A DNA stretch of 64,000 nucleotides, taken from the NCBI GenBank assembly GCA_900617105.1, contig UYFQ01000327.1, positions 1 through 64,000 of the forward strand. The letters run 5' to 3'. The position numbers were made by a program, and so were the translations under genes. The stretch comes from Hydrurus foetidus (lineage: Eukaryota). Positions 14,862 to 52,605 of the stretch are shown here, in pieces; position 1 is the stretch's first letter; each line of letters starts with the position of its first letter. The notes under the pieces are model-generated. The model was given only the letters and a program-made list of their open reading frames with translations. It was not told the DNA's origin and ran no database searches.

Positions 14862-15560
14862 CAAGGGGGTATAGAAAGGAGGTTACCCCCTCTTGGTTCT
14901 ATTCCGCTCTCAGAGGTAGGTCCCTTTAGGGGGAGACATCCCCGTGCGACCTCACGGCTTTTCACCCGCGCTCTCCGTTGCATCCTAGATGCTCAGTTCG
15001 AAGAACAGAGAATGGAATAAATGCGGCGTTATCTTACAATGGGTGCGCCTGCGCGCCTGGGCTCGCCCGTCCGCCCTCCCCTGCTGTTCTTCCTTCCGAA
15101 CCAAGCTTGGGTGTTGGGGGCGGACCTTGGGTCAGAGTTTCCTTCACCAACTGGCACGCAAGTGGTCAGATAACATTGCACAACATCTTATACTATCACC
15201 ATAAAAACGTAGGATTGGTTGGCCACGGGGTAATAAAATGCGTCACACTAGATAGACTAAGGTTAATCAAAAGATTGTGAGAGAACACTCTCAGTGAAGC
15301 GCGTCGACTACGAGCGGGCACACTATATTAATAATTCGAAAAAGTGCTGAATAATTATTCGAAAACGTAGAATGACACTACAACGACTAGGGGGACTTAT
15401 TCCCGCTGCATGTCGGTCCAACGCTATCATCGTCATCGTCCCCCGTCCCGTCCCTCGGTATCTCCCCATCCGCAGCCGCCCCTTTAGGGACCGGCACCGG
15501 TCAGCGGCCTTAGCTCCTAGCCGCTCCAGAGAACCCATACTACCGTCCGGTATCCTTTAA
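14862..15560. mobile_element. Unclassified 699-bp non-coding insertion with 6-bp direct repeat TTACGA
   Basis: Absent from the sister LTR at 20570-20852. TTACGA occurs at 14856-14861 and 15561-15566. The insert starts with hairpin CAAGGGGGTA...TACCCCCTCTTG. Confidence 0.85.
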
Positions 15561-15835
15561 TTACGAGGTGTGGTACGCACGTACGCACCGAGTCCGGTTA
15601 ACGGCGCTACTCTTTGTATGCATGAAAATGAATGAGTAGTTTAGCGAGCGACACTTTAGATTGTAGGTGACCGAATAAGTGTCGTGGCTAATGAACAGGG
15701 ACATTAGTCACAAGTTTAAATAACAAGTACTGATCGAGAGCAGTCGATTTTTTACGAGTCTTGGAACGTGATACACCACCGGATAGTTCTAGAAACACCG
15801 GATTTCCAACATATTTAAACTGACAAGGAAGCATC

Positions 15836-18800: not shown

Positions 18801-20432
18801 CATTACCAACCTGGGGATACGACAGTCCTAGCCAAAAAACACGTGATGAACATCACAGTCAAGGAAGCGCTAAGGAGTAGGGGTGTGGAAGCAGTGCGAG
18901 TCATACTCAAAGAACTATCACAAATGATAGACAAAAAGGTATGGACGCCTGTTCACATGTCCGTACTCTCCAATACGGAAAAACACGGTATTATTCGTTC
19001 GCAGATGTTTCTCAAGGAAAAGTACTTACCTACTGGTGCATTCCAGAAACTTAAAGCTCGACTAGTCGCTGGTGGAAACCATCAGGACAAGGACCTCTAC
19101 GACGACCTCTCATCACCTACTGTCTCCACGAGTGTGGTTATGACAGTGTTCGCCATAGCTGCTCATGAGAAGAGGAGCGCCGTTGTGGTCGACATTGGGG
19201 GTGCCTATCTGAATGCTAGCATGAACACAGGGGTGACCGTGCACATGAGACTCGATGCTAGCATGTCCAGAATGATGACAAAGATAGACCGACACTACAA
19301 CCAGTTCACAGACAACAGAGGGTGCATCGTAGTACGGCTCGACAAGGCATTGTACGGGTGCGTGGAATCAGCGGCGTTGTGGTACGAGAATCTATCTGCT
19401 ACCCTAGCTGGGCTAGGGTATAAGAAGAATGACTACGAGGCATGCGTGTACAACAGGACTGAAGGAGGGGTGCAGTGCACGGTTGCATTCCATGTAGATG
19501 ACTTGATCATCACCAGCGAGAACAGTGAGTATGATCGATGATCTGTGCAAGGGACTCAAGTGTGAGTACGGAGAAATAAACAGACGAGATGGGCCACTGC
19601 TGAATTACCTAGGAATGTCGTTCGACTTATCAGTGCCAGGTGAAGTGAGCATGGGCATGAAAGGGTACACCAACGATGTGATACTATGCGGGGGTATACC
19701 GGGTAAAGCGCGTAGCCCGGCTACTGACGGCCTATTTGACATAAGAGATGGTACGGAACTCGTGGTGGAATCGACCCGGGTATGGTTCCACAGTATTGTT
19801 GCGAAGCTATGGTTCTTGGGGAAGAGAGCAAGACCAGATTGTTTAGCAGCATTAGCGTACCTCGCTACTCGTGTCACTCGCTGCACTGCTGATGACGTCG
19901 AGAAACTTAAACGTTTGTTGAGATACATAGCTGATACCAGAGACAGAGGTGTCGTATTCAGACCAGGCAAATTTGGTTTATCGATGCAGCATACGGGGTG
20001 CATCCGGACGGTAAATCACACATAGGAAGCTGTGTGGTGATAGGTGACTTGGGTGCGGTGCACTGCAAATCTAGCAAGCAGAGTATAGTCACTAAGTCGA
20101 GCACAGAAGCCGAACTAATCGCACTATCTGACTTTGCAAACCAAGGCCTCTATATCCGTAATTTTCTTATCTCGCAGGGACACAAGATGAAGCCGGTGAT
20201 GATCTATCAGGACAACACTTCCTGCATGGCCTTTGTCGAGAGAGGACGCTCAGGAGCAGAGCGCACACGGCACATCGCTATCCGAAACTTCTGGATACGT
20301 GAGCGGGTCACCACTGGAGAAGCTGTCATAGAGCATATGGGGACGAAGGAGATGTACGCGAATGTACTGACGAAGCCCCTCAAAGAAGCACAATTCGTAT
20401 ATGAGAGAAAGTGTCTTACGGGACAGGAGTAA
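15836..20432 (+). pseudogene. Copia-1 gag-pol, broken by stops and frameshifts
   Basis: Knuckle C*VCGELGHYARDC near 16741. Protease LLDSQAS. Integrase IMTDGE and HVARIERKI. RT KARLVAGG, LDKALYG, HVDDL. RNase H SSTEAEL and YQDN. Confidence 0.93.
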
Positions 20433-20569
20433 TCATAACGTGCATTACTGCAGATGTAATGAAATCTATTGCGTGCTGTTTGATGTATTGTGAAATCTAC
20501 TAATGTATTGTTACAAGCTGTTTGAATATAAATAATTCATGATGTTTAATTGCGGTAGCCCTAGGGGTG

Positions 20570-20852
20570 TGTTGGATATTGCGTTATAGGACTACCGTTA
20601 GTTACGAGGTGTGGTACGCACGTACGCACCGAGTCCGGTTAACGGCGCTACACTTTGTATGCATGAAAATGAATGAGTAGTTTAGCGAGCGACACTTTAG
20701 ATTGTAGGTGACCGAATAAGTGTCGTGGCTAATGAACAGGGACATTAGTCACAAGTTTAAATAACAAGTACTGATCGAGAGCAGTCGATTTTTTACGAGT
20801 CTTGGAACGTGATACACCACCGGATAGTTCTAGAAACACCGGATTTCCAACA
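20570..20852 (+). repeat. Copia-1 3' LTR (283 bp)
   Basis: Direct repeat of 14832-14861 plus 15567-15811, with about 2 substitutions seen. Confidence 0.95.
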
Positions 20853-29565: not shown

Positions 29566-29666
29566 GAGCGGAGAGAGAGGGGGCGGATCTCGCACTCGAA
29601 CGATTGACGTCCCCCTACGTCTTAGCCTACTACAACGCCGCTGTCCGCTTCAGCTGAAGACTGAAC

Positions 29667-32600
29667 TGTTGATGCCGACGGATCAACTGGGAAGAATCGA
29701 AGGTCCTGATTCAGTTTGGTTGAATTAGATTATGTCAAAGGAGTGAAGATGATCATGTGATTCAGTAGAAAGCACCTGCAGGTTGGTGAGTTGTCACTTG
29801 TCCGTAATCATGCAATGTTTCAGTGGTTGTGTGATTGCATTCAACATCATGTGATTGTTATCTACTGTGTCCTGAATGCAGTGATTCTCGAGTTTGTCTC
29901 GGTAGAGAAAAGCGGATTGTGTTTCCACGTTCCGCAGGTGGCGCGCACACGTCTTGTTATATCGACAGTATCAACACACTCTCTCAATTTGGCTTTTGTT
30001 TACCTTACTTGACTAGACAGCGGCACGTTGCGCAGAGGATTTCTGGAAAGATTTGGCTGGCGATTGCGGTGTGTGGACAAGAAGTGGCATGAGTACCTGG
30101 TGTGTCTTAGCCGGTGGGGGTTTGGTGAAGAAATCAGCTAGATTATGTTCGCCTTTACGCCACTGTATATGAAAATGTCCTTGGTTTACGCGGTCTCTGA
30201 TCTAATGGTATCGCATATCGATTAATTTTGTCCTTTTTGCTTTGACTGAGTTTATCGCCATACCCACTGCGCACTGGTTGTCGCAGAGTATTAACGTGGG
30301 TGATTGCGTGTAGCCCATGTTTGAGAGAACCTGCCGCAGATATTCCCCGTCTTGGGCCAGAAGGAAAAGCGCCGCATACTCTGCTTCTGCGGCACTAGCA
30401 ACCACTGATGGTATAATGGTGCTGACTGCATGGATAGCACCATTGATGTGATGAGGCGAGCCAGCATTTCCTAGATAGCAGATGCCCCCAGCGACAGAGC
30501 GTGCTTTTGGCCGAGATAGGTAGGAGGCGTCTGCTTGAATGAATAAGGTCATGTCGCACGCGTGGTACACTAATTCGTTGTTAGGGTATCGCGCGCAGTA
30601 GCGTAAAAGGCGGTCGGCAATCTCCTCAACTTGCTCTGTGGGGGCCGATTGCAGCGATGCGATCAGATTCACTGTGGGCAGGAGTGTGACATCGACGCCT
30701 CGGGCGTAGAATAGCCGAAATCGTCTACAACTAGCGCGAAGGTTGTTCCGTTTGATGAGTGTCTGAATAAGCATGGAGTGTCGGTCTGATGGTACTGATG
30801 TTTGCGTAAGTGCTCAATGAGTTTTTGTTGTGCTAAGTACCCTGCCTGCGGCAGTCCGTACATCCCTTTATTAACTTCGAACAGAATGGAATTGTTGGAC
30901 ATGAATCGCTCTAATTTGTGGGCCGCCAGAGTGGCAGGGGGAATAAGTTTACGTTGGATACGAATGTATTCTGGCCGGGATAGTGGCGTATTCAAGTAAT
31001 AGTCCTTGATGTCTAGTGTCATCCAATTGCTGTCATCGCTGACAACTGATTGCAAAAGGATTTTGACGACAGGCATTGCGGCGGTGTTTGCAGAGGTCTC
31101 TCCCGGGTAATTGATCCTGTCACCGCCGATGGTGCCTCGTACTCTGTATGTTCGGTTACCTGTTGCATCTTCCTTCTCTTTAATCTGCGGATTGTAGTAG
31201 CTGGTGTCTTTTCGACGATGCATTGGTTGCTCATGAATGTGTAGGGGTTTCATTGTGTTTGATGAAAATAGTCGGTTAAACTCTTCAATCTCAGCTTGCC
31301 GCCACTGTAGTTCCTGGTCACCACGAATGGCCTTTGCGTATGTTAAGGGTGACCCGTCTGGCGCCAAGTTCAGGGATGATACAGCTGATGCTGATCCCGC
31401 GGTTGTTCTACTGCGTGTCACCGGTGGCTCAGGCTGCGTTTTTAACAGCGTAGTTTTTGAAACGGGGAAAGGTATATTTGGTGCAGTGGCCTCTGTGGGT
31501 AGCATGACGTTTTCTGTCAGGTTAACGCAATGGTCGGACTGCGCCGCACTGTTTATGGTCTGAGGTGCAACTGTAACTGACGATTTCTCGATTAACAGCG
31601 GAAGCGGCGGTGCTTGTTCTTGATTGGGGTCTGCTGGTAACACCCTCTGTTCTGCGTCCGTGTACTGTAGTTGTGACGACGGTTGTTGCAATTCAGTCGT
31701 CGGAATGACGTCGGGTAGGGTAATGGGTTCGGAAGGTGCTATGGCGATTTCAGTTGCTGTCGGAGTATCTGCAAGTTGCAGAGTCCTTGGGCAGAAAGAT
31801 TTCACAAACGCCTTCAAGTCCTTGAGCATTGTATGAGGAACATCATGCAGTTGGCGTGAGTGCGCTGTTGCAGGGTGTGATGTTGCTAATGTGGATATTG
31901 CTGCTGCCAAGTCTTTGATTGCAGCTATGGCAACGTCATGGGGTCCAATATTAGGTAGTACCACTTTGTCGAAGATCCAACCCAGTGTGTCAGTTACTCT
32001 GATGGATTGTGTGTCGATTGACCACACACTAAAGCAGCGATAATGCTGTTGCGCTGGTCCTAGGTAGAAGCCGAGCACACCATGTGGTGCCCAAGTACCG
32101 CGGACAGTTGGCTTGTCGTGGATAATGACTTTGGTGCCTGCGGGCGCTATGGGATGCGCTCGAAAATCGAACTGTCGCCCGTGTAAGCCCTCATAAGCAG
32201 AGATGTTGGGATTAGGACTGTAGGGTATAAGGTGATTCAAGCAAAGTTCTGCTTGCGGGAGCAGTTTGTCCCACAGAATCATTGGAAAGTCGGTGGATAC
32301 TGTGCATAAGGTCGCGATGAAGTGGTTCTTGAATGTTCTGATGGCGCGCTCTGCTTTCAATGATCTGTGTTGTCCTGGAGGGCAATATTGTATTGAGACA
32401 TTGTTTTTTGCTGCATATTCTCTACTGCTAAGGACGTCTCGTTGTCAAGCCTTTGAAACAGTGGCTTATGCCCAACCTTGTCCCAGAATGCCAGAGTGTT
32501 TTTGTATGCGTTGACGTAGTTTGACTGGTGACGCGATGGTATAGCTTCGCAATGGATGTATCCGTCTAGTACTGATACGAACACGTATTCGGCACCGGAT

Positions 32601-34755
32601 AGGGCCTTGACTGGAAACCGACCCGTTAAGTCTGAATGTGCTGTTGGTGAGAGAGACAGTGTCTTTGTGAAGACTGTTCTGCGGGGTGATGGCGGGTGGT
32701 TTGCTTCGTCTGAATCTTCAGGATGATCGTCCAATGATGTCGAGTCGAGGCCCTGGCGGTATTGATCTAAATGTCCCCTAGCTGTCGCTGCCGTGAGAGA
32801 GAGGTATGACCTAACCATAGTGGCAGTCAACCGTGGATAGGAAGAGAGGTACCCTTACCGCACTGCGCGAAGTAGAGTGGAAAGCGAGGGACTGCCGAGT
32901 GTTGTGTGTATAAATGTTGCGAAGGAGGCATCGGTATCGCTACGGAGGATTGCTGATGCTGCCGTGGCTGCTGTCGATTCCACAAGTGGTCTGACTGCAG
33001 TACAGTGAGACCATCTCTGGTAACATGCATTTCCTCGCTTGTAAAAGTGGCAATACATCCGTTGTTGCACAGTTCTGAAATGCTGACAAGTGATGTATCG
33101 AGAGAGGCATCAGGAAATATATGTGCCGTAAGCGGTGCTGGTAGATGGGGCAACCACAACTCTCCAACAGATGAGGAGCTCATAGTGTCACCGTTAGGAA
33201 GTGCCGAACGGATGTTGCTGTTGTGTCGTACGTTGCTTAATGTGACTGCATCCGTTTCTCGCAGTAGTATATGCGAAGATCCCGTGTCAGCACACGGTAG
33301 TTGGGTGACTAGGTGGGCCGATGAAGATAAGACTTTTGGACTAGAACAAGGTTGTGTTAAGTTACCGTCCAAAATCTTAACTTGATGGCCGATTTGTCAG
33401 AGTCCGTGTATGGATCCATTTGCAACATCGGTATGGGTTGTTGCTGCCTTCATAGCTGCAGTGTACTCTGGTAGGGCAGCCATCTATCGACACTTGGAGC
33501 TGCTGTGGGAGTTGTACCCATGTTTGAAACAGTAGGTGCGGTTGGATGCGTCAGTCGATGAGTTTGCTTTCGCTTTGTGGGGAAAGGCTGCCGAAATCCG
33601 TTTATCTATATATGCTGCGAAAGCCGCCGACTCTAGGTATCCCGTTGGCATATTTGTAACGGCAGACACCGACGCTGCGTATCCGAGGTCTACGGGGGCT
33701 GGTGTAAAATTGGGCGCCTGCTCGGTGATATGATTGACAAGTCCAGTAAACGTCTGCTGCACAATGTGTGGATGCGCAGTCAGGTATGATGTGATGGCTG
33801 TTGTGTAGGACATGTGGGAACCGATAGCCGCCCGTAAGTACCGGCACTTGTCGACCTCGGATAGTCCCTGATTGGCCGATAGGAACTGGCTGTGCCGCCA
33901 ATTCGGAAAAAGTCCTACTTCCTATTTTCGTGTTGAGATCTGTGCGGAAAGAGTCGAAGTCAGAGGCTAAGAAGGTCCCATATCGTTCCCGTAACTGGTC
34001 CAGTAGTTGTTGGCACGATATGGATACGAGGCCGAAGAATAGATCGCTTAGCTCGTTTTCATCAGCGTCGGGGAGGCTACTGATGATAGCGTTCTTCAGT
34101 ACCCGCAACGCTTCGGATATAGCGGAATTTCTCCTGAAGGTTATTTCGTACTGTTTTAAGTTTGCTGCTGGTGCGCCCAGTTCGGGTGGCGGCGTGAGAA
34201 CGACAATCGGCCGATTCATGATTATAATTTCTCCTTCGTTGGCTGGATTGTTCATAGCGATGCCAGGAAGCATTGCCCATTGCGCGTCAGAAACGCAAAA
34301 ACCTAGCAAGCCGTTGACTCCCAGGTGTTCCTGACAGCGACTTCCGAATGCTGTATTTGTTGCTCGAAGGAAAGCTTGCATGTTTTGCCTGCTGTTCGCC
34401 TTGATGTCCGGGAGAATCACTTCAGTCATTGTAATTTAATTCAACTGTTGATGCCGACGGATCAACTGGGAAGAATCGAAGGTCCTGATTCAGTTTGGTT
34501 GAATTAGATTATGTCAAAGGAGTGAAGATGATCATGTGATTCAGTAGAAAGCACCTGCAGGTTGGTGAGTTGTCACTTGTCCGTAATCATGCAATGTTTC
34601 AGTGGTTGTGTGATTGCATTCAACATCATGTGATTGTTATCTACTGTGTCCTGAATGCAGTGATTCTCGAGTTTGTCTCGGTAGAGAAAAGCGGATTGTG
34701 TTTCCACGTTCCGCAGGTGGCGCGCACACGTCTTGTTATATCGACAGTATCAACA
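29667..34755 (-). mobile_element. Copia-2: Ty1/Copia element with identical LTRs but defective coding region
   Basis: 310-bp LTRs at 29667-29976 and 34446-34755, identical by eye. TSD TGAAC at 29662-29666 and 34756-34760. PPT (minus strand) GAGAGAGTG. Confidence 0.96.
30202..34429 (-). pseudogene. Copia-2 gag-pol, fragmented
   Basis: Knuckle YCFKHGYNSHSSSKC. Protease CADTGSS. Integrase SDLTGRFP, RLDNE, AERAIRTFKNHF. RT LDIKDYYL, KGMYGLPQAG, VVDDF followed by an internal deletion. RNase H ADASYL, SAAEAEY, CDN. Confidence 0.93.
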
Positions 34756-34760
34756 TGAAC

Positions 34761-36183: not shown

Positions 36184-37680
36184 CTTGAGAAGCAAGGATT
36201 TTCTTGTCGAAGGGCAGTCCTTTTTTCAGGGTGAAATCTGCTACTACTAACTTCCACGCAGATTTTTTATTTTTGATGTTAGAATACATACCGTCAGAGT
36301 GCTCACATCAAGCCACTTCACGGAGCCCGCAACTTAAATCTGCACGCTGGACTACATATCTAGAAATATGCTGAATAGACGACCGTTACTGCCGATAAAA
36401 AAGTTGCATCGCAGAAACCTTCAGTTATAGCACTTCACGAATCAGGGCAATCATTTCCATCACAACTTTGTGTGATTTCTCGTGCCCCAACTTTTTTGCC
36501 GAGCAGCTTTTTCGTGGAAAAACTGAAGGCTCGAGAAACTACAGATTTTCTTAAAAACTAAGGTTTTTGGTGTAATTTTCGTTTCCCGAACGCACCCTTT
36601 GGGTTCCTTATGATAAATGCCTGGGATTGCCATATAAATTTACGAATAAACCCTTATATTAGAGGAGTAATAGCCAAAAGGCGGAAGCTATCGGACCGCC
36701 AAAAAAGTTGACCGTAATCCGACACAAAGTCGGAAACGTCGGTTGTGTCAGAACCTAAGCTGTGAGCTGTGAGATGTGAGCTGTGAGGAATTGGCCCTAT
36801 TCCAACTCGTTGGAGTTGGGAGTTGAGGGTTTTGGAGTTGGTAAAAATAGCCCGTATAATTTTGATGGGCTTTTTTACCCACTCCATTTTCGTTTTCAGA
36901 CTCCAAAATTTAAATCGTGGAGTTGGACCCGCACCTTTTGAGTTGGGGTGAAACACCCAGTAAAATAATGTAAAACTCAAATTCTTGTGGTGTACCGGAA
37001 AATCCGGTGTTCACATGACTGACAAATTTTACCAACTCCAAATCCCCAACTCCTCAACGACGGGTGCGTTCGGTAAACCGTGAAACCTTCATTTTTCGAG
37101 GTATTTCTGAAATTTTCCACGAAGGCCTTCACATTTTGGGAAATCATGTTCGGTAACAAACCTACATCATCACATCTGGAGGAAAGTAGTGATTCCAGGA
37201 AGAACGAGTATTTGTTCCTTTTGCGGCGATGAGGATTCATTTGTCGTAGAGAAACTTCTACCGAACGGAATGACGTGAGATTTCAAACTCTCTTGAGGTA
37301 AGCAGCGCGATTTCCCTACTCTTGACGGCTTCTGATGCCACAACTTTTCATGGGGAAACTAGTTGAAACAACTCTCATCGAATGTCACTTGTTAAAGCAG
37401 GACTTTTAGCATCTTGGACTGACGTCAACAAGAAGGTCTTGATTGATGTCTTCGCCGCTTTCTCGGGAGGGTGTTCAAGCAGTGAGCAACGATTGATCGA
37501 TCCGATATCCCCACCAGGATCCCAGATCCCGGATCTCCGATCGATCATCCCAGAAGTTTGGCACAAATGAAATGTTCAATCGTACGAGAACAGTGTACGC
37601 TCTGGCGGGGACGCTGGAACATCTTCATACTGTACGTGTAAGGAGTGAGCGTAAAGTATGGGATGAAGTTGAGACTGTTC
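36184..37680 (+). repeat. Copy A of a composite repeated segment containing Harbinger-type TIRs
   Basis: 36184-37097 matches 48419-49352, 37484-37508 matches 50898-50923, and 37514-37679 matches about 52266-52444. Confidence 0.9.
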
Positions 37681-38492
37681 TGTTGGTAACCGTGGCACAA
37701 TATGTTGTACACATATAACAATCCATACCGTTTTGGCTTCGGCCAATTACAGCCATCAGTATTGCGTGACTGACCGCAGTCATAGCTTACCGCATTCACC
37801 ACCATAATTTAATCACAACAATCGTCGAATAGTCCAATTCGTTTGACACGTTTGATATGCAGTACGCGATCAACAGTTGTGATTAGATCTCTTCGCTTGA
37901 CAATGGAGAGCACGACGCCAATTAATTTACATAGTCATATACGACAAATTTTCTTAGTATGGCGAAGATCGATAATCGAGGCGTACGGACAGTCCTGTAA
38001 TATCTACAACCAACACAGACTGCTGGGATATTGTCAGACTAACCACTAACGTAGTTACGTCTGTTGTATAGTAGTAGATATAGTAGTATAGATACACGTT
38101 AGGTAGTACTGTATACATATATGTATATGCGTAACTGTACGTACACCATAGAACGTACACTGTACATACCAGATATGGCCGTTGGCGATACATCCCATAT
38201 TCGAAAGTATCCTTTCAGTGCCAACAACTGCTATGACCTTTCTTGCAACGCCACACATGATTTCACCTCTACCTTGCTCGCCACCTCGTTTGCCAGGTAG
38301 CCAATCATATGTTAGTTGCATATGTAGGTTGCCAACTGCAGATCTTCTGTATCTTGTAAACCTAGGCAGATCTTAATCGATATAGCTTGCACGCCGACAC
38401 AGCGTTCTAGCCGAATCTTGGAGTTCTACTGCAGTAGCCTCCACACCAGTTGGACTATACGTCATCAGGTGATATCCTTAGCCAGATCCACA

Positions 38493-38501
38493 TGGTAGCG
38501 A
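38493..38501 (+). promoter_or_regulatory. Primer-binding site of Copia-3 (TGGTAGCGA, initiator-Met-like)
   Basis: TGG, complementary to tRNA CCA, follows the LTR-terminal CA directly. The tRNA identity is inferred. Confidence 0.7.
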
Positions 38502-41500
38502 TTGATTGTTGAGAAATCACAAATCAAGTCTGATCATTTTTAGCAACCAAAATTGACGTCATCAGACAAGCAAAGCAATGCTAGCCACTCAGAGCAGAAG
38601 TTCTAGTGTGCCAAAATCAGCGGCAAAACAACCCGCCGCTGCTCGAACGGCTACTCGGTCAAGAGGCCAAACGAGATTTATCTCTTCAGCTTCAGCACCA
38701 TCGAAACCGGCTTTCCTCCCAGATAATGCGGATATTATTCCTCGCGGATATTATTCCACTGGCGCCCATCGTTCAACAAACTGAGTTAGGCATTCCACTT
38801 GAGGATATTCTAAAAGCGCCTGCTCCGCCGGATCTTATTCAGAAAGATCTACTGACAATTCCTGGAGCGATTCTGGATAATGGGAAGAGGAGCGATTCAG
38901 CGGATCTAACCACTCACCATTCCCCGGAGCCTGCCACATCTCTGGCCACTGGGCAATCTTCTAGTATGTATTCTAACGAAGATATGAGAGAAATCATTCG
39001 GTCAATGATGACCGAATATACGATCTGATCAGAAAGTGTGATGAGTAAGACGCCGGTCGAAACGGCGCAACATAATACGGGGAATCAAATCATCCTAGGC
39101 GTAAGAGATGATGTCAGCGACCTCCAATTAATAATCGAAATCACGACAATAGCCTTATCGATGGGTCACCGTCAAGGAGTATACGATCACTACGACGCAT
39201 CAATCATCGATGGCAGTCAAGATCAACTTGTCAAACGACGGGGCTACCAATAGGAAGAAGCTCAAAGAGCTCGAGCTTCTCCTGAATGAGTGCGAGCTCT
39301 TTACTCTCGCTGAGGAAAAGAGGATCCCTGTTCCATCCAATGAATATAACCCAAGTGGTTATACTCATGAATCTGCCAAGTTCGACGGCAACAAAATAAT
39401 CATCACAAAGAAAGGTATACAGGATCGCTTCCATACCCTCCTGCTTGTTCCCTTTGAGCTTCCTGGTCAGTAGGTATAGCTTGTCTGACTCAGTCATACA
39501 CGTGAGGTTAACGTTGTTCACGAGCGTGACAGCTTCTAGGAACGCCGCGATGTTTTCTTTGATCGACTTGCTTGAAGGTGGCTTGAGATCGTCGAGTAGC
39601 CCCCTTGATAGTCCGCTCTCATTACTCCTCTCGCCTTGAGCAAAGCGTTTGATTGCTTTGTACCACTCGATCCCGTTCTTGACGTTGATGTGTTGCGTGA
39701 TGAGATAGTGTAGGTCCTTGTTTGTGACAAGGTTCATCAGAGCGAATAGTCTTTCTGTGGCTTGCGCTCGGATGGTTTACCTCCTGGAGCCTTGGATGTC
39801 TTGCGTGAGTACTTACACCGCTCACCGAATGTGCAGGAGCCTTTGAGGAAATTGCGACAGACATTTCCCTCAGTGATTGCATTCATCTTCAATGCTTTGA
39901 TGGTTGGAGGGTCAGCTCGAATGAGCTGATTGACTAGCTCGCGATATCCTTTACTGTTACGACAAGTCTAAGACAAAGTATCAACCACCGCAGCACAAGA
40001 AGGTATCATTCGAGCACCGATTCAAGACCGGGTCCCCACGTGGAAAACCTACGGACAAGAATCCTGAAGGACACTCCATCAAGCAGCTCGTTGTCCCCAA
40101 GTCGCCTACAAGCCAGGGAAGCAAAGACGGCTGGCAAGATCCAACATACTTTGACATTGCAAAGTCTCAAAACAAGACGGAGCACTTAAACGTATTCAAG
40201 ACAAACGCAATCACGCCATACGTACCACCAAAACGTACAAGCCCAAGACGCGTCGTCATATCCGAGGAGACATCAAGGTGGATCCAAAGTCAAGAAGCCA
40301 TGCTCATGTCCATCGATCAACGAATCAAGACTTTCAGAGATGTAAACGACTTTGTACCCACCATCAAAGATCTCCTCGTATACGTCCACAAGTATACCAA
40401 GTCGGATCTTGGCAGATCCACCAGTGAGGTCGAAGCCACCATATTCACCGGGTTCTGTTGGCAGTCAAGTTGCAACCCACTACACAACATGTGTAAAGAA
40501 AACCTCCAAGTGAAAGATGCGGACCCTCATGTTATGGAACTGCTGTATGAAAACAGCGAGTACTTCAACGCCCGTATGGATTTCCCCACCGCCCAAGAAT
40601 TGACCTATAGAGAGTTTAATCTGTTTAGACCCACATGATCAGACTATCACCCACGGGGAGAACCGGGCCACTACATGTCACGAGCAAATGAAATAGACGA
40701 GTTCTATGTTATCGCAAATAGGATAAACATCATGGGAGTGTCATCGGATACAAGAAATGTTCTAATGCTAGGTCTAGTGTATGACTTTATGTCATATGTA
40801 GCAGAGCATCTCAACGTAGACATTATCAACCGCAAGACAACCATGGCTGGACGAGTCATCATGCGCCACAAGATCAAGAGGCTCAGCAAAGAACCCGAGT
40901 ATGTTCAGCTACATATGCTCACACGGATATTTCATGCCATTGTGGATTCACTCCGCCCACCGGTCATAGAACGCGAAGCACCTCCCCCGCAGGAAGTACG
41001 TACGTTCTCAGTCATGAGCACCTCGGAAGGCAATCAAGGCGACCGCTTCGGCATCGATACCGAAGACGACATGGACTATGAGGAAGCTGTAGGCACATTT
41101 GATCAGCCTGACTATTGGGAGGATACAAGTGACGCAACCTTCAGTCCCAACGCAGCCCTCCGAAACAAGGATATGCAGCGCGAAGACACCACAACAAAGA
41201 GCGTGACCTAAGGAACCTGTACAACTTCCCTGACACGCCGGAGATATTCACGCCTCAGAGAAGGAAGCCGAGGAAGTCAGAGGTCAAAGCGGTACAAACA
41301 CGTCAGGAATATGACGCAGACACTTTCCCTATCCAACCTCCACTAACCACTTGCACCTACACCACCTCGTCGGTACACACCAAGCAAATCATCTGAGCCA
41401 CGCACGCCAGCGACTCCACAGTCAACCCCACAGCGCGTTGCCATAGGCATGTATGGAAATGGTGCACCACGATGGGGTTATGTTGCCAAGCGAACTCAGG

Positions 41501-41924
41501 GCAAGGAGAAAGCAGCTGACCCAGCCCAACCAACATCAAGCAGCATGACTAGCTCATCAAGAAGCGTCATAACGACCCCGCGGTCATCAGCTAGTGTTGG
41601 AAGCGGATCAGCGGCATCACGAAAGAGCACACCTGCTACATCGACTCCTCAGCGCCTCCAAAGCGGATCCTCTGCATCCCACGGTATACACAGCGGATCA
41701 GCGGCACCATCCAGTGTGCACAGCGCATCAGCGGCACCATCGCCGGCTCCCAGCGCCTTAGAGGCATCACCAGGACCCCCCACACCAGCTCTTCAACATC
41801 AGCCACGTTCAGGCAAACCATTTGTAGTCGACCTCACGGCCCCAATGCCACCACGGAGGGCGAAGGCCCCAAGGCTAAACTGAACCTCCTGCACGTTGTA
41901 GGGCCGGCACATCGAGTCCTGGGG

Positions 41925-44900
41925 ATGGCCTCAAAAGAAAATAAAGTTATCATCGACAGTGGAGCTTCCACGTCAGGAACAGGTCTCCAAAATAAGTTTA
42001 AGAACCTACGGCCTGCATCATGCACGGTAAATGCAGCTTTCGGGGAGACCATCACACCATCAGAGATGAGTGACCTGCCACAACCGACCATCGTCATCAA
42101 AGGAATGAAGGACACGACCCTACTGTCACTGTCACAGGCATGTGACGAGATCATGTGCGTTATCTTCACGTCACGCGACTACAGATTCTACGGCCTCAAA
42201 GAGATGCAACCTCACCTGGCACAGATCAGCGAGACCTGCGAGATGAAGTTGTGGGGAGAAGTAGAGGACGGACTCTACATCCAGAAGTCAATCTGACTTT
42301 GTGACGAGGAATGCTTGTTGGTCACAAGCGCTAAAGACACCTCGCTATACGACCACGTCCACCGTGTCCTAGCACATCCTGGTAAAGAAGGGATGGAATG
42401 GCACCAGACACACTCCACTGGAACAGCATACACCCGCAACGATGCGAAGGCACACCGTCCCGTGTATCAAGCATGCGTCCAGGGCACAATGCGACAAGCA
42501 TCCACGGACCACTTAAGAGTCCATAGAGCACCAGCACCCATACCGGGGAGCCAGTTTGGTCTGGATGCATACACCCACGCAGAAAGAGGCGCAGGCCGGT
42601 TCAAATACTGCGACCTCTTCACGGATCTCACCACACGGCGTGTGTATCCGGTGTTCACCCGTGACCGGGGAGCCCAAGAGCTATGCGACCAAGTCAGCCT
42701 GCTCTTCGAGTCTCATCCAGAATGGAGGAACGCATCTACTACATCAGACACAATCGATCGTTTCATCAGGGTCGATGGAGAAAAGTCATATAGATCCAGT
42801 GAGTTCACTAAGTGTCTCGGAGGCTTTGGATACCGCACTAAGCCCACACCACCTCGTCACAAGCATGCCAATGGAGTAGCGGAGCGCACAGTAGGAGTCA
42901 TTGCAGCCAAGTGCAACACGATTATGCTAGCCCCCACACCACCGGTTCCACCCAAGTTCTGGGACATTGCCATGAGCTATGTGTGTGCCACTATGTCGTT
43001 TAATTACAATAGTTTGATAGGTACTTCCCCATACAACATACTAATTAAAAGCATGCTGTCGTCAAACATCTCCATGCTTTCTGGTCCAAGTGCTGGGTCC
43101 ACATACCAACCAAGGACGCAGGCGGTAAAGTCGGTCACCCCCGAGCATACCAAGCCAGGTTCATTGGGTATGACTTGACGACCACACTCAAGCCTACCTA
43201 CAAAGTCATCGAGATATTAGAGAAGGGAAAATATGGCATAGTGAGGATCAGCAAAGATGTCATTTTCGACTAGCCTGAAGAGATAGTGCAACAAGTGGAA
43301 GCCACAACAGCACTAGAGCCACCGCAGCAACATGAGGCAGCTCAAACGCCTGTCCCAGCACCAAAAGCGGCACGCAATCAGACACCTGCAAGTGCACAAG
43401 TCACCATGCATGCACCAAGTGAGGCGACACAACCAAACCAGGTCGACAGCATGCGACGACGAAGTGATGCGAATGCAGTTACAACTCCAGCTAATTCCCA
43501 CCCAGTGGCGCATAGCGGTGCATCCAAGAGGGCCTCACCACCATGCATACCTGATGGTGCACCAATACACCCTGCTAACACTGTCGAATCGATTGGTGCA
43601 AACACACCGATAGTGTCATGGGAAACAGAGGATGCCGTATATTGGTACGCAATCCAGGCCACACAACTGATGACCGTAGTTGAGACGTCTCGCTATGATC
43701 AGATAAAGACACTCCCAGATACCGGCTTTCCCAAATCGTTCTGGAGAGCGATAAAGGACCCACCATGGGCCAAAGCCATCGACACTGAGCTGACGAAGTT
43801 TGAAGTCAACTCTTGCTTCAACCTTGTCCCTTTTACTGGACAGCACCTAGTTCCAATGATGTGGCTGTTCAAGAACGATGGGACGAAGAAGGCTCGACTG
43901 GTCGACAGAGGGGACAAGATGATTCCCAACGTTGACTTCACCCCGAAGCTGTGTATTGTGGAAACGTAGCAGCTTGCTCAATCAAACTAGCCATGGTCAT
44001 AGCGGCAACATACAAGCTCGTCTTGACAGGCGGTGACACTGTAGGTGCATACCTCATTACAAGAGCAAACAAGGACTTCCCAGTGTTCATCACCACACCC
44101 CAAGGTTATTACGTACCACCCGGTTACTGCATCCAAGCAGTAGGACACCAAAATGGATTCCCTCCAGCCGTACAGAACTTCTCCATCGAGTTCGACAAAT
44201 GTTTTAGGGAGTGTGGGTATAAGAACATACCATGGGGCCTCAAACTGTTCTTCAAGTGGACGCACTCGGGCAAACCGATGATTACCATCGCACATAGTGA
44301 TGACTTCAGATGGTTTGGTCCAATCGACCACATCCACGAATGGGATGCAGTTCTCGAAGCATTCAACAAGCATGGATATCAAGTCACTGATGCAACTGAC
44401 AAAGAGTTCGTCGGCATCCGTATAGAAGTAGACGAACACTCCAACTACTACATGGATCAATGCCGTATGATCGACCTCATCATCAAGGAGGCGAACATCA
44501 CAGGTGCAAAGGACGAGCACCTCCCATACCCCACCGACGCACAGCAGCCACCACTGTCCAAGATGGACTGCCCTACCATTGACGCCGATGGGGCCAGACG
44601 TGTCGTCGGACAACTCATGTACGGTATGGTGCACACAATGGTGGGTATTGTGTACGCACTCAACATACTTTCGAGATACGGTAACAACCCTGGTCCCCGA
44701 CACATACTTAACCTCAAGCACCTGTTGAGATATGTCAAGTATGTGAAGAGGGGCCGTCTCATATTCCGGACCCATGACGGACCAACCGACATAGACACCA
44801 TGACCAAGGTACTACAGCTGAAGTTCCAGTGCGATGCAGATCTAGGTGGTAACCAAGATAACCACCACTCCCAGACCTGCTACCTCGGATACCTCGCTGG

Positions 44901-45270
44901 AAGCCTCATCTGCTGGTGTTCCACCGATCAAGGGTCAGTATCCACGTCCACAACGGAATCAGAGATCAAGGCTGTCAACCATGCACTCAAGTCGGAAGTC
45001 ATACCAACTCGCGGTATATTAGAGATGATAGGGTGGAAACAGGATCCAACCATCATCGAAGAGGACAACCAGGCTTGCGTGTACTACTCAAAGACCTCTT
45101 CGATGATGGTTGGATCCTGTTTCCACCCTATCATCTCTAATATACCGCGAGTTGGTATGACTTCCGACTTGAGTGCATGGTTGACAGCCTTGATCAGACG
45201 GCACGTGCACTGTGATCAAAGTGGCCTCTGAAGACAATAACTCGGACATTGGTACCAAGAGGGTAATACT
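41925..45270 (+). pseudogene. Copia-3 pol (PR, IN, RT, RNase H), fragmented
   Basis: IIDSGAS, IRVDGE, ANGVAER, KKARLV, HSDDF, CDADLGG, STTESEIKA, EEDNQA. Confidence 0.92.
44964..45195. repeat. Perfect 101-bp inverted duplication with a 30-bp spacer in Copia-3 RNase H
   Basis: 45095-45195 is the reverse complement of 44964-45064. Confidence 0.93.
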
Positions 45271-45956
45271 CCCCATCTTCACTAAACTAACGTCCCAAAT
45301 TGTTGATAGGACACTCAGAAATAATTTATAAATGTTTTTTGTAAACTTTTGCATATTATTTAATATTTTACAATGCCTTTTGTAATTTTTTAGTATTCTA
45401 CTCACACAGTAGTCTATAATTTTTTGCAATTTGTTATTTGTATTATTAATAGCTCATTAGCAAACATGCACTCATATACATGCATACATCTTCACTACGG
45501 GGAGTGTCAGACTAACCACTAACGTAGTTACGTCTGTTGTATAGTAGCAGATATAGTAGTATAGATACACGTTAGGTAGTACTGTATACATATATGCATA
45601 TGCGTAACCGTACGTACACCATAGAACGTACACTGTACATACCAGATATGGCCGTTGGCGATACATCCCATATTCGAAAGTATCCTTTCAGTGCCAACAA
45701 CTGCTATGACCTTTCTTGCAACACCACACATGATTTCACCTCTACCTTGCTCGCCACCTCGTTTGCCAGGTAGCCAATCATATGTTAGTTGCATATGTAG
45801 GTTGCCAACTGCAGATCTTCTGTATCTTGTAAACCTAAGCAGATCTTAATCGATATAGCTTGCAGTTTCGCCGACACAGCGTTCTACTGCAGTAGCCTCC
45901 ACACCAGTTGGACTATACGTCATCAGGTGATATCCTTTAGCCAGATCAACAGATAT

Positions 45957-48418
45957 CTTATGGCAGATGATGCCTGGGCGCTTCTACCTGGAAATACGAT
46001 CATATCAGAGCCAGTTGACAACCTACCAGCAGTTATCAACATTGCTGCGCGGCCAATATTGCCGGAATTCACACCGCTTGCAGCTGCGCGGCCAATATTG
46101 CCGGAATTCACACCGCTTGCAGCTGCGGCAACGGCGGCGCAACAATCAGCGTGGGATAGGAATACCAAAATACTAAGATGCATCAGGGAAAACCATGATA
46201 CGTTAAAACTCCGTCTGATTACCTGCGATTCTGCGCAACTCAACAACAGCAATCCTACACGTGACTCTACAGGCCATAATAGAACACATTTCAGCGCTTC
46301 ATGGGACGTTAGATAACAACAATTATGCCCAAGTGTTGTTGACACTCACCACAGCTATGACGACGGCGGATACCATTTCGGGCACTGTGGTTCGACACAG
46401 ACATATTCACGAGCAATTCCACAACTCCAACCAGCCTCTTTCTGAGTATCAAAAGTGCACATACTTCATAAATGCGATCAATCAGCATTAGCACATGCGC
46501 TCTGGGTATGAATCATACGTGATTGCCACACCACTCATCGGCAATCAAAATTTCTTGACGCTCACAACACACGTTATCATGCAAGCTCCCAATTACACGG
46601 CGACAGCAGCATTCGCAGCGTTGCTCACCAAGACAGTGCAGCATGCAATACCGCCACAAGGAACACAGAAACAAAAGCCCACTCACTACTGCTACTTCCA
46701 TGGGCATAATAATACACACAGTGGTAGTACCTATTTTAAGATGCTAGGAGACAGCACCATCTACACCGATGCACACCTGAATGCAACCACACCGTCCATG
46801 GTGGCCAATTGGTCGACAGCAGTACCTGGAGATCAGCGTAAAAGTAATCGGACGCGCTCTTAGGTGACAGCAGTAAAGTTAGCTCTCAATGTCATAGGCT
46901 GCTGCAATGTAATTAACACAATTGCGCAGCATGACACAGCTTCCTTTACTGCTTCTTCAATGGCATGTGCTGACACAGAGTCCACACACACACTACTTAC
47001 CCGCTCTGATAGCACGATACTCACGCATGTACACCCCAGTACGTTGAACGTTCAACTACCTAACGGCGCCTGTATCAACTCGCACAGCGTAGGCGCACTT
47101 TATTTACCAAATCTCGACCAAGCAATTAGGGCGCACATTTTTGAAGACAGTGAGTTGTCACTCTCATTACTGTCTATCTCGGATTTATGTAACGCAGGAT
47201 GCACCGCTATCTTTACAGCAGAACGTATCACTATTCAGTACGACGGATGCATAATCGTACAAAACAAGAAACAGTGAGCTGAATCGTTATGGCACGTTAC
47301 TTTGCCAACCACGTCAGTCCACGCGAGTACAGTAAATGTCACGTACAGCTCTGCTCCCAATAATAGCAGCAAGGATGGGGACTTCATACGGTTTATCCAC
47401 GCGGTGTTCGGCAATCCAGCACTCTCAACATTCACCAACGCTGTTCGTCCCAACAATCTGCCATCACTGCCACTACTCACTTGTGCAATGTTGGCAACAC
47501 ATTTGCCTTGCACCATACCGACCGCACTGGATCATCTAGATCAAACAAGGCAAGGACAGAACTCCACGAAGCTATTCACTGCGTTGTTCGCAGACCCAGA
47601 CACCGATCCAATAGACACTACGCATCCAATAGTAGATACCACTATCGACAGCAACACATTCACGCATGTCTTTGCTCTCACAGAAACCATGCACTCTGAC
47701 TTGACTGGGAAATTTCCTGTCACTTCGTTCTCCGGAATGCAGTATATCACTGTTTCTGTGATTAATGGATATATCCACGTTGAACCCATGCGCAGCAGGC
47801 ACCATTTGGAATATGTCGGACAATAAACTCCTTCGCGAAGCTGGGCTGTAAGCCGGTATGAGACATCTACTTGATAATGAGACATCTACAATACTGCGCA
47901 CCACATCAGCACAGAGCGTTGTGGGCTGAGCGAGCGATCCAGATATTTAAATACCACTTCATGGCAACGTTATGTACAGTTGCTAAAGATTTTCCTCTCG
48001 ACATTTGGGACGAATTGCTACAACAAGCAGAATTGTGTCTTAATCACTTGCTTCCTTATCCATCAAACCCAACAGTCTCGGCATATGCTGGATTACATGC
48101 TAGATTTGCAGCGAACCCAATTGCACCAGCAGGCGCCAAAATAGTCATACACGATAAACCCGACACACGAGCAACATGGGCTCCACATGCCACACATGGA
48201 TACCACCTAGGCCCTGCACAGTCACATTACCGTTGCTATCGGGTATGGACAACGGCTACCAAGAGTGTTCGTGTTAGCGACACAATTGCATGGTTTCTTC
48301 ACGGTCCCCAACTGCCTGGTCCGTCCGCAAATGATTTGCTACATGCCGCTATTATCGACCTCACACAAGCCATGAAGACCATTCACGATTCACCTAACAA
48401 CGAATGTTCAAGATTCGC
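45957..48418 (+). pseudogene. Copia-4 gag-PR-IN remnant
   Basis: HYCYFHGHNNTHSG, CADTES, SDLTGKFP, AERAIQIFKYHF, HLGPAQSHYRC. A 39-bp tandem duplication (AARPILPEFTPLA x2) lies near 46043-46127. Confidence 0.9.
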
Positions 48419-49352
48419 CTTGAGAAGCAAGGATTTTCTTGTCGAAGGGAAGTCCTGTTTTCAGGGTGAAATCTGCTACTACTAACTTCCACGCAGATTT
48501 TTTATTTTTGATGTTAGAATACATACCGTCAGAGTGCTCACATCAAGCCACTTCACGGAGCCCGCAACTTAAATCTGCACGCTGGACGACATATCTAGAA
48601 ATATGCTGAATAGACGACCGTTACTGCCGATAAAAAAGTTGCATCACAGAAACCTTCAGATATAGCACTTCACGAATCAGGGCAATCATTTCCATCACAA
48701 CTTTGTGTGATTTCTCGTGCCCCAACTTTTTTGCCGAACAGATTTTTCGTGGAAAAACTGAAGGCTCGAGAAACTACAGATTTTCTTAAAAACTAAGGTT
48801 TTTGGTGTAATTTTCGTTTCCCGAACGCACCCTTTGGGTTCCTTATGATAAATGCCTGGGATTGCCATATAAATTTACGAATAAACCCTTATATTAGAGG
48901 AGTAATAGCCAAAAGGCGGAAGCTATCGGACCGCCAAAAAAGTTGACCGTAATCCGACACAAAGTCGGAAACGCCGGTTGTGTCAGAACCTAAGCTGTGA
49001 GCTGTGAGCTGTGAGCTGTGAGCTGTGAGCTGTGAGCTGTGAGGAATTGGCCCTATTCCAACTCGTTGGAGTTGGGAGTTGAGGGTTTTGGAGTTGGTAA
49101 AAATAGCCCGTATAATTTTGATGGGCTTTTTACCCACTCCATTTTCGTTTTCAGACTCCAAAATCTAAATCGTGGAGTTGGACCCGCACCTTTTGAGTTG
49201 GGGTGAAACACCCAGTAAAATAATGTAAAACTCAAATTCTTGTGGTGTACCGGAAAATCCGGTGTTCACGTGACTGACAAATTTTACCAACTCCAAATCC
49301 CCAACTCCTCAACGACGGGTGCGTTCGGTAAACCGTGAAACCTTCATTTTTC
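48419..49352 (+). repeat. Copy B of the composite repeated segment
   Basis: Near-identical to 36184-37097. The GCTGTGA heptamer has 7 units here and 4 in copy A. Confidence 0.93.
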
Positions 49353-50895
49353 AAAATTTCTGTCTCAGTGGATGTAACTATCAAAAGTGAACCTTTGAAA
49401 AATCTTATACTTATGAGGTTGAGCTATTAGTGTGCATTAATTTGAGCCATATTTAACTGATATGAGCCCACACAGCTATAGCTATATTATTTCGCGAGAT
49501 CTTACCTTCTTGCATATTTAAACCACCTTCGTCCTGATCCTCAATTTCATCATCATCAGCGTTTGGATTGTTAACTAATTCAACATTACAGAATTCATCT
49601 TCATACAATAGATTAAGGCGTACAAAGTTGTGTATAAGGAAACATGATTGTATGATATTGCACTGAAATTTATAATTATAGGAGCTCATTTTTTTTGAAA
49701 CCGGGAATCTATTTTTCTTGATGCCGTACAGTCTTTCTACACAATTGCGTAATGACGAATGTCGTAGATTAAATAATTCTTTATAATTTGCGGGACCTAT
49801 TCCATTGACCGCATACTCCATCAAATGGTAACGAACACCACGATACGGGTCAACATGTACTTACTAAGCCACCGTCTCCTAAGAAGTATTTGTTAGCTAG
49901 CAAAAGTAAACATTTCGTTCATGCATCGTCGTATACTCTGCTATCATCAGAACCCTCCCATCCAATCAAGACGTAGGCAAACGTAAGATCAAAATTGGCC
50001 ACGCCTAAACGTTTTGAGAATGAAATTTCTTCCTATTGTAATATGGGCCTTGCAGATCCACAGGTATTACTGCGGGTATATGTGTTCCGTCAATTGCACC
50101 AATACAGTTGTCGAAGTAAGGCGTAAAATTCGCATTATTCGATATCTTTGCCGGAATAGGATCACCGGCTAGAGCAGGTTTGAAGATGCGATCCTTGATA
50201 TTGTCCAGGCAAGCACTCATCTCATGAACTATGTCAGATATAGTTGCACCAGAGTGTTGCCATCGTTCGGCAGTTTCTCTGTTTGTGTACCCATGGAGAA
50301 CGTGCAGCAGAATAAGAAGATTCTGTCCGCTGCAAATATACATAGAATCTCTAAGTCCCCCATCAATCAGATTTGCCTTAAGCAAATCGAAAGTTTCTTT
50401 GCCCATTCGAGCAACTTCTCGAAATCTGTTGACATTCTCAGTAGCCATAATCTCCCTATAATATAGGTCACCTGTGAGAACCGTATTGCGCTGCGGGCGT
50501 GGTTGTCGCCGCGCTCGGTACATGCCAACTAGGACCACTGCTATCAATCGCATGACATTCATGTTGCCTTCCGCATCCATCGTATAAGTATGCTTTATGA
50601 TTATGCGGACTTGTTGAGTTATCCTTCTAACGGTATTTTCATGTCCATGTGAACAGATTCATGTTTTTTTCATGATTCCGTTCGGTAAACCGGAAATCCT
50701 GGAAACTCGGAACTTTCATTTCTAGCAATGTTTCTTTTCGATCCTGGATGAAGCTTTTTCAAATATGAAGGTTTCTCAGTGAAATTTACCGAACGCACTC
50801 GATATCCAAAACGAAGGAGTTGAATGAAACTAAGGCCTAAAATTTTAGTCTTTTTTACAGCTCCCACCCAACTCCAACGAGTTGGAATAGGGTCA
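49048..50895. mobile_element. PIF/Harbinger-type element (outer TIRs, 3-bp TSD AAT) enclosing a second TIR pair at 49317-50800
   Basis: AAT|TGGCCCTATTCCAACTCGTTGGAGTTGGG ... CCCAACTCCAACGAGTTGGAATAGGGTCA|AAT. Inner pair GGGTGCGTTCGGTAAA ... TTTACCGAACGCACTC. Confidence 0.85.
49453..50580 (-). pseudogene. PIF/Harbinger (DDE_Tnp_4, HARBI1-like) transposase, disrupted
   Basis: CIGAIDGTHIP, NRKKFHSQNV*, GWEGS, YRGVRYHL, ELFNLRHSSLRNCVERLYG. A stop and frameshifts lie between 50005 and 49824. Confidence 0.93.
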
Positions 50896-50922: not shown

Positions 50923-52260
50923 TTATAACCGACCGAAGGTCGGTATATTTAGAACCGTACATGTACGTACAACTGTTTTGATGGATCTCTACAGGCGGGG
51001 CTCCAAATTGACCAGGTGAATTCATATTCGAAAGGTGGCTTCATTACAGTCACTTTCTACAAAATTTCGACGTTGTTGGATATTCTAGGTAGGTCTAGCA
51101 ACTTCTTTGCACCCCGAATGTCGTGCATCTCTGAAACTAGAAAAATTGAAGACAGCGTTTTCCTGTTTGCTGTGTTGCAGAAAATTCACTTTCACGTCGA
51201 ATGCCGCCCAGGAAGCGTCGCCAAAATGACGTTGCAGAGCCAAAAAAAGAGCAGGAATCATTGATTACTTTTTCATCAGGTATGAATGCAAAATTTCATC
51301 GTTGCAACCTCTCCAACTCCTTACTCTATGGTAGGAAAATGACCATTTTACGATGCTTCCACTCAAAAATCACCCTGTAAATACTCGAAAAGAGCTGATA
51401 GCGTTCTTCAAAATAGAATCTGACCTATCTGATCATTTCAAAATGTATTTATTACTGTAGGCGCAAATTCTTGATGCTAGCCGAGCTGTGATACTCTCTC
51501 CAGCTTCGGAGAGCTTAGGATTTCGAGCGCGTCAGTTGAGAAAATCCTCGCCAAATCTGATATTCAGTTCATTTCAGCTCGAATTTCACTTCTGAAAATT
51601 GAACTAATCTTAGAATGCACCTGATCATCCAGGATCAGAAATGTGGCGCAATCGGAGCTGCACTTAAAAAGTCAGTTTCAGAGAGCTGGTGGTTTCGAGC
51701 GCATCAGGTGAGAAAATCCTCGCCAAATCTGATATTCAGTTCATTTCAGCTCGAATTTCACTTCTGAAAATTGATCTAATCTTAGAATGCACCTGATCAT
51801 CCAGGATCAGAAATGTGGCGCGATCGTAGCATATCTCAAAACTCAAGTCTCGGAGAGCTTCGTTAGATAGGACACGTCGATATGTCGCATGTTACGAAAT
51901 CCAGCGCCATTTCCAAAATTCAAATTAAGTGCACATGTTAAACTTTCTTTGGATTTTTTAAAGTTCAAACAGAGTTCCTAATTTTCCAAACCCAGACAAT
52001 TCTAAAGTTTAACAAAACACACGCCATAAGGAGTATTCTGGGAAATCTGTTGCGGTGATTTCATATCTATCCCGAACATGATCATGATTACTCCGATTAT
52101 ATTTACCATTTCTCAAAGCAAAGAGGGGTGCTCATGCGATCACAGTTCAAATGAAACGAGATTGTTACAAGATTCGTCATCAAAATTACCTAGCAGAAAT
52201 CATACGTCTCACAGCCTACGGCAGTTACGGTCGGTTCGTTATGCAAAGCATACAGTATTA
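50923..52260 (+). mobile_element. Non-autonomous Helentron-like (HINE/DINE-1-type) element
   Basis: Absent from copy A (empty site GATATCCCCACC near 37504). Left hairpin ACCGACC-GAA-GGTCGGT at 50928-50944. Matching subterminal repeat CGGTCGGTT at 52228-52236, then hairpin TATGC-AAA-GCATA at 52240-52252. Internal tandem duplication at about 51521-51830. Confidence 0.75.
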
Positions 52261-52605
52261 TCCCGACCAGGATCCCAGATCCCGGATCTCCGATCTCCGA
52301 TCGATCATCCCAGAAATTTGGGACAAATGAAATGTTCAGTACGAATACGAATCGTACGAGAACAGTGTACGCTCTGGTGGGGACGCTGGGACCCCGTGAG
52401 GAGTGATCGTAAATCGTTAAGTATGGGATGAAGTTCAGACTGTTGATCAGCGCCCTTACTTCTACCTTATCGCTTTCAAAATGGCTTTCGTGGTGATGAA
52501 TTCGCATAGTGATGGAATGACCACAACTGATATTGTGTAGACAAAATTTGGTCTCATGATGTTAGGTTTTCCGTCTCGCCTCAGTGGATAATCCTGAAAT
52601 AAGCC

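Follow-up and report, generated by a model that had tools for sequence, protein, structure and literature searches.

In the window, a 64,000-nucleotide stretch of eukaryotic DNA rich in LTR elements, the LTR of a degraded Ty1/copia retrotransposon (E4) carries, close to a predicted transcription start, an arm complementary to the bases that directly follow the LTR. The group to which E4 belongs likely primes its own reverse transcription, because dozens of relatives keep this pairing between arm and primer-binding site (PBS) with different letters. By analogy with Tf1, the front end of the element's own RNA would replace the host tRNA, and we put the probability of this reading, for the E4 duplex and its clade, at about 85%. 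The clade is most likely a self-priming copia group of diatom type, its pairing far beyond chance, which resembles Tf1 in mechanism but stands outside the Tf1/sushi group. Four features are observed: arm and PBS pair, the duplex abuts the LTR end exactly, it covaries across the clade, and it keeps a fixed distance to an initiator-like motif.

E4, which the first-pass annotation called Copia-4, is placed in Ty1/copia by the protease (PR) and integrase (IN) that it has in common with a second element of the window, E3 (the annotation's Copia-2), its own RT being missing. Ty1/copia membership of the group is indicated by PR-IN-RT-RH order, a copia-type RT, TG...CA LTRs and a 5-bp TSD; the RVT_2 match of E3 (E 4e-6, 27 bits) lies under the cut-off of 31.6, and PF07727 is found in intact relatives. 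E4 is a dead element, interrupted by an unrelated nested Copia (E5) and cut off at 48419 by a repeat, with RT and 3' LTR absent from the window, and its duplex structure is an inheritance from its active family. The truncating repeat measures 947 bp and has copies at 36184-37109 and 48419-49362; E4 also sits inside a copy of another short repeat (37506-37679 and 52259-52444). E5 provides an internal negative control, since its longest self-complement is 5 bp and its score under the anchored rule described below is 7, equalled in 21 of 30 shuffles. Ahead of the E5 protease lies an unusual low-complexity coding sequence of about 3 kb (39153-42296).

Table 1. Coordinates of the elements and of their observed and predicted features in the window.
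Feature	Position	Strand	Remarks
E2	15554-20852	+	initiator-like A 15710; arm 15713-15722; LTR end 15811; predicted PBS 15812-15821
E3	34755-29667	-	LTRs 310 bp, identical
E3 5' LTR	34446-34755	-	initiator A at 34512; arm 34511-34498
E3 predicted PBS	34432-34445	-	pairs with own LTR arm at 13 of 14 positions
E3 3' LTR	29667-29976	-	identical to 5' LTR; 5-bp TSD 29662-29666 / 34756-34760; empty-site joint 29661-34756
E4 5' LTR	37681-37875	+	195 bp, TG...CA (TGTTG...CAACA)
E4 initiator-like motif CATAA	37802-37807	+	transcription start predicted from sequence at 37804 or 37805
E4 predicted self-primer	37804-37819	+	16 nt; paired arm 37807-37819
E4 R/U5 loop	37820-37875	+	56 nt; hairpins 37824-37847 and 37852-37873 predicted by RNA fold
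E4 predicted PBS	37876-37888	+	zero spacer to LTR end; complementary to LTR arm
E4 gag start	37903-38031	+	open frame from ATG; interrupted by nested element; 5-bp duplication flanks insert
E5 (nested, unrelated Copia)	38032-45951	+	LTR pair; TGG-type, tRNA-Met-like PBS at 38493
E4 remainder	45952-48418	+	gag, in-frame TAG 46861-46863, protease, integrase with stops and frameshifts

The 13-bp duplex that the first-pass annotation had described in E4 is borne out: 37876-37888 pair with 37819-37807 through ten Watson-Crick pairs, one G:U and two more pairs, followed by mismatches, across a loop of 56 nt. This duplex closes the minimum-energy fold of 37804-37900, with a z of only -1.98 for the single sequence, and a 10-mer complement arose by chance in 13 of 20000 shuffled LTRs. 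The annotated LTR end at 37875 also holds, on three lines: the homologous end of E3 (itself fixed by the 310-bp identical LTRs, the 5-bp TSD and the empty-site joint), the ends of RNA reads, and the LTR span 37681-37875, given by contigs of related copies in which a polypurine tract lies, as a loose end, directly before 37681. The reads in question, 26 and 52 in number and from one sample, derive from a related copy of the LTR; their alignment ends exactly at 37875, beyond which they continue into unrelated flank. Sense reads of this related LTR span 37816-37875, with the bin 37816-37829 as top limit and five reads ending at 37822; the upstream limit fits a start near 37804 but could reflect divergence instead, the reads being less than 90% alike and from one sample. 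The related LTR, which has no PBS, drives or belongs to a sense, oligo-dT-selected transcript that enters flanking DNA (runs X22 and X23). In two RNA runs searched at a 90% threshold, over about 6% of each run, zero reads fell on E3 or on the LTR of E4, a result that says nothing on expression.

The comparison between E4 and E3 was the starting point of the earlier claim. In E3, the nine annotated pairs and the 52-nt loop stand, but four further pairs beyond one A.C mismatch had been missed. Homology of gag, PR and IN had been asserted; PR and IN are 44-58% identical, while gag is marginal (36 residues, E 0.011). The LTRs, described as dissimilar, indeed give no blastn match, yet a weak alignment extends across the initiator, R and U5. 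In a gapped alignment, the differences between the two duplexes come down to a matched indel of 1 nt, a compensatory change (T-A/C-G) and a single imperfect site, and because this amounts to only about two matched events, the E3/E4 pair is weak by itself and the family is needed to carry the claim.

The family set consists of 80 of the 571 metagenome loci that matched in a homolog search and alignment. A complete 5' LTR-gag junction is present in 58 of them, which together with E3 and E4 gives 60 junctions; the 22 loci with an incomplete junction were left out (L007-9, 15, 16, 18, 21, 23, 26, 29, 32, 37, 44, 45, 50, 52, 58, 64, 67 and 77-79), and removal of the near-duplicates L054, L055 and L059 leaves 57 elements. 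In a blind search that used no anchors, E3, E4 and the majority of relatives had the LTR/PBS duplex as their best stem in the 330 nt before the gag ATG. An anchored rule, which combines an initiator-like motif with a CA or TA LTR end and takes the best duplex, gave a score of at least 8 in 55 of the 60 junctions and of at least 10 in 45, with a duplex of 8-14 bp abutting the LTR end; the corresponding values were 5.7% and 1.2% for dinucleotide shuffles, and 7/60 and 2/60 for antisense strands. Since this rule picks the best duplex and, like the list of 60, was written with the sequences already seen, it is the controls and not the raw percentages that carry weight. Five junctions fail. Two of them, E3 and L012, do not match the motif pattern, although their duplexes extend over 9 and 11 bases; those of L042 and L043 contain bulges, and pairing in L033 is poor. 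Four of the five (E3, L012, L033 and L043) were set by hand. A chance origin is rejected on the blind search, the shuffle controls and the shuffled-LTR count given above, and an assembly artefact is rejected too, the duplex occurring in two elements of the window as well as in dozens of unrelated contigs, and missing from 3'-LTR flanks and from E5.

The geometry of the duplex is closely constrained. Its 3' arm starts on the first base after the LTR, with zero spacer, and the loops of the family measure 26-84 nt. In 56 of 57 elements there is a YCAYWA motif whose A lies 14-18 nt before the end of the upstream arm (C at -1 in 55/56, the pattern-required A in 56/56, A at +3 in 53/56), and the arm is likely to be the RNA 5' end because it ends at this distance from an initiator-like CAYA motif. 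The family motif fits both the diatom initiator, CAY+1A / TCAH+1W, as given in PMC4686930, and the oomycete initiator YCAYTYY, as given in PMC3599244. Contiguous pairing begins 2-8 nt, mostly 3-6, after the initiator A in 53 of 56 elements, a measure that hinges on the true start. The base next after the arm is T in 2 of 57 elements, against 34% T in the loops (binomial 2e-8, relatedness ignored), and by this avoidance the helix ends at the edge of the LTR, as is required of a primer end. In 3'-LTR copies of close relatives, the arm is kept and similarity is lost at the called end (+0, +0, +2, +3). Of the 43 elements with a visible polypurine tract, only 25 have the called end ranked first by terminal inverted repeats; the TG...TA subclade is without any.

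Two further features of these elements were observed. The LTR ends in TA and not CA in 20 of the 57 elements (L006, L011, L024, L046, L062, L070-L073 and others), and a few also start with TA. Gag and pol lie in frame with one stop between them in the 33 junctions, out of 55, that were judged (TGA in 28, TAG in 5), followed by a G-rich stretch; the arrangement, to which the E4 stop at 46861-46863 can be compared, suggests programmed readthrough.

The features of the duplex can be arranged into a course of reverse transcription whose start site, cleavage, enzyme and priming we infer from Tf1. In E4, the RNA would begin near 37804, at the initiator-like motif, and its first ~16 bases would fold back onto the site directly after the LTR. 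RNase H is the predicted agent of a cut after 37819, and the 3' end set free in this way would prime minus-strand DNA. The R/U5 loop would template a minus-strand strong-stop DNA of 56 nt, which would then make the first jump through R; as a further step, plus-strand synthesis may copy the retained primer into the next PBS.

Not all of the Tf1 architecture recurs in the clade. Of the three duplexes of the Tf1 "pretzel", the U5 stem is patchy in the clade, where the hairpin at the U5 end beats shuffles in only 14 of 57 elements, E3 and E4 among them, and the third is absent, pairing 3' of the PBS being at chance level (6/57, mean rank 0.48). With two Tf1 features weak or absent, the duplex could be a conserved RNA structure with another job, such as packaging, dimerisation, gag translation or 5'-end protection, priming being achieved otherwise; its fold in the predicted leader is stable (z -2.0 to -4.7 in six elements), and a conserved hairpin of unproven role occupies the same position in fungal GalEa copia (PMC5445492). 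A generic stem, however, has no need to start right after the LTR, to end at the LTR edge or to avoid G:U (5 of 570 cells), and the duplex leaves no space for another primer site in elements that have no conserved PBS sequence, so that we regard such a role as unlikely. The same sequence signature is also predicted by pairing in trans, in which a short RNA of its own, transcribed off the same LTR promoter (an abortive, second-copy or solo-LTR transcript), would be the primer and no intramolecular cut would occur. Sense transcription of the related LTR without PBS and the incomplete pretzel are compatible with this, but short loops favour folding in cis, a defined 3' end would still require a cut, and no precedent was found in the literature examined; a primer in trans thus appears highly improbable beside self-priming in cis.

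Covariation in the family supports the self-priming reading. The 57 elements carry 57 different PBS 10-mers, with all four pair types at positions 3-10, and over ten positions 540 of the 570 cells are Watson-Crick. An element's own arm forms 10.75 of 12 possible Watson-Crick pairs, compared to 4.95 for a foreign arm, and is strictly the best in 47 of 57. In 28 path-disjoint sister pairs drawn from a PR-IN-RT-RH protein tree, the ten positions hold 99 pairing-preserving double changes and 26 other changes (7 non-pairing doubles, 2 singles saved by G:U and 17 pair-breaking singles); the root of this tree is meaningless, E2 and E5 having almost no aligned columns, and the pair counts are independent of it. 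Parsimony requires 173 steps for the arm, 183 for the PBS and 194 for the pair state, and hence nearly every change is joint. Inner-edge anchoring inflates double-change counts wherever primer lengths differ; nine close pairs of equal primer length show 17 pairing-preserving double changes against 9 other. An unfitted MAFFT alignment of 41 junctions, which is out of register at unequal primer lengths and whose shuffle control ignores relatedness, gave 113 double-change cells versus 55.4 +/- 5.9 in shuffles (0 of 500), with register 0 topping all slides. A MAFFT alignment of 22 equal-length primers was excluded, its PBS side being out of register.

The annotation's proposal that LTR arm and PBS change together is thus confirmed across the clade, in 57 elements and 28 sister pairs, and so is its view that the PBS does not match a fixed tRNA, each element having a 10-mer of its own. 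It had named a lack of covariation across the family, or an LTR end elsewhere than 37875, as grounds against itself; covariation is found and that end is supported. Host tRNAs or anticodon-loop half-tRNAs could nonetheless serve as primers, a different one per family, the LTR match being a by-product: varied half-tRNA priming is known in copia (PMC6317226, PMC10886601), and the host-tRNA match was judged here from TGG and PBS diversity, which bears on it indirectly. This is very improbable, given the diversity of the PBS 10-mers and the scarcity of TGG, which occurs within 0-5 nt in 3 of 57 elements and at position 1 in none; moreover, sisters 0.15-0.3 substitutions apart show 1-4 paired changes, and tRNA priming gives the LTR no reason to track the PBS.

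The annotation had further read the joint changes as selection on pairing. The arms do covary, but selection on pairing as such is not established by this, since copying gives the same pattern: if the self-primed plus strand copies the primer into the new PBS, the two arms change jointly and no second mutation is needed, and they would be expected to drift together quickly. Double changes in RNA stems usually pass through G:U. In the family, G:U pairs are rare, double changes in the nine same-length close pairs comprise 12 of transversion type against 5 of transition type, and in 12 sister pairs the arm (mean identity 0.78) diverges as fast as the unpaired loop (0.76). Judged from these sequences, the data lean to templated copying, and selection and copying probably both act.

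Self-priming itself is well described for Tf1 (PMC7175516, PMC10085805, PMC11042837). The Tf1/sushi elements Tf1 and Tf2 (S. pombe), Tj1 and Tosmo have, like the clade, a PBS right after the LTR that is complementary to their own LTR near the RNA start; that group is without a tRNA site, and the clade is without a TGG start or a conserved PBS. Tj1 shares with the clade a stop between gag and pol, as described in PMC4600332. Tf1, however, has 11 fully paired nt from the first base, whereas the clade has a predicted primer of 14-18 nt with an unpaired 5' tip and a highly variable sequence; RNase H cleavage, which releases the primer in Tf1, is predicted for the clade. Membership in Tf1/sushi, a Ty3/gypsy chromovirus group with RT-RH-IN order and a chromodomain, is rejected on the copia order and RT, the likeness being one of mechanism only.

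Within Ty1/copia, self-priming has been predicted for the plant TAR lineage (Houba, Osr-1) in PMC6317226. TAR, E4 and E2 (the second lineage, described below) are all copia with a self-complementary PBS, and E4 and E2 satisfy the rule given in that source (10 bp at a distance of 0-5 nt from the end of the LTR). The hosts of TAR are plants, whereas the nearest named relatives of the clade are proteins of Thalassiosirales diatoms: one branch matches Thalassiosira, Cyclotella and Skeletonema proteins at 58-74%, the E3 RT being about 47% identical, and it is because of this branch that the clade is considered CoDi-like. The CoDi copia of diatoms (PMC2806351) also have at most one stop between gag and pol, like the clade; the main text of that paper does not mention priming, tRNA or primer binding, and its supplement may bear on this. 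In the literature searched, which left subscription journals, Repbase and GyDB outside, no report of self-priming in diatom-type copia was found. The Conserved Hairpin Site of fungal GalEa elements is, like the duplex of the clade, a paired sequence at the PBS position of a tRNA-less copia. As described in PMC5445492, it is a palindromic, sequence-conserved 9-mer downstream of the LTR that pairs with a 9-mer 12-41 bp further downstream; in the clade, by contrast, the partner arm lies upstream inside the LTR, and the PBS is neither palindromic nor conserved. In a gypsy element of the window (6040-14651), the last A of the LTR and the next 11 bases (6246-6257) make up a 12-bp palindrome without mismatches; it contains no TGG, has no complement in the LTR and recalls the fungal GalEa hairpin site.

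A second copia lineage of the window, represented by E2, whose RT is 21% identical to that of E3, carries a comparable duplex of 10 Watson-Crick pairs with a loop of 89 nt. Its relatives comprise 23 loci, seven of which are non-identical and have a full junction (L082, L086, L090, L091, L093, L098 and L099). Under a rule loosened to primers of 10-18 nt and loops up to 220, and in a small sample, E2 and six of the seven relatives pass with 9-16 pairs (7 of 8 complete junctions); six junctions beat at least 29 of 30 shuffles, L086 was equalled in 8 of 30, and L082 has a 9-bp run at the LTR end, yet fails. Chance-level scores were obtained for E5, for the gypsy element and for one 3'-LTR-only locus; an AT-rich 3'-LTR-only locus scored 11.5, equalled in 4 of 30 shuffles. 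In this lineage pairing begins at A or A+1 in four of seven cases. Loci L081-L103 are eukaryote-type copia contigs within bacterial GTDB bins, likely through binning contamination, and viral contigs held zero relatives of either the E3/E4 or the E2 lineage. Tentatively, and at somewhat short of even odds, two or more deeply separated copia lineages of diatom-like protists could have tRNA-free self-priming as their rule, with a shared design (an initiator-anchored primer of 13-18 nt, zero spacer and no Tf1 pretzel) that would either date back to an ancestor of much of copia or have arisen repeatedly, and in which primer and PBS would co-evolve by templated copying, self-correcting and drifting near-neutrally.

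Self-priming has been demonstrated only in gypsy elements of Tf1 type, and merely predicted in one plant copia lineage. Its presence in a large protist copia clade and in a second, distant lineage would, if true, make it a recurrent or ancient solution, a point that bears on whether tRNA priming arrived late in LTR element evolution, a question raised in PMC3601003. The proposal is directly testable in diatoms, which can be transformed and carry copia induced by stress (PMC2806351), and it would reveal whether the RNase H of a copia element can cut an RNA:RNA duplex. If true, it would also explain the failure of PBS finders on these elements, which would be freed from the host tRNA supply and from silencing by tRNA fragments.
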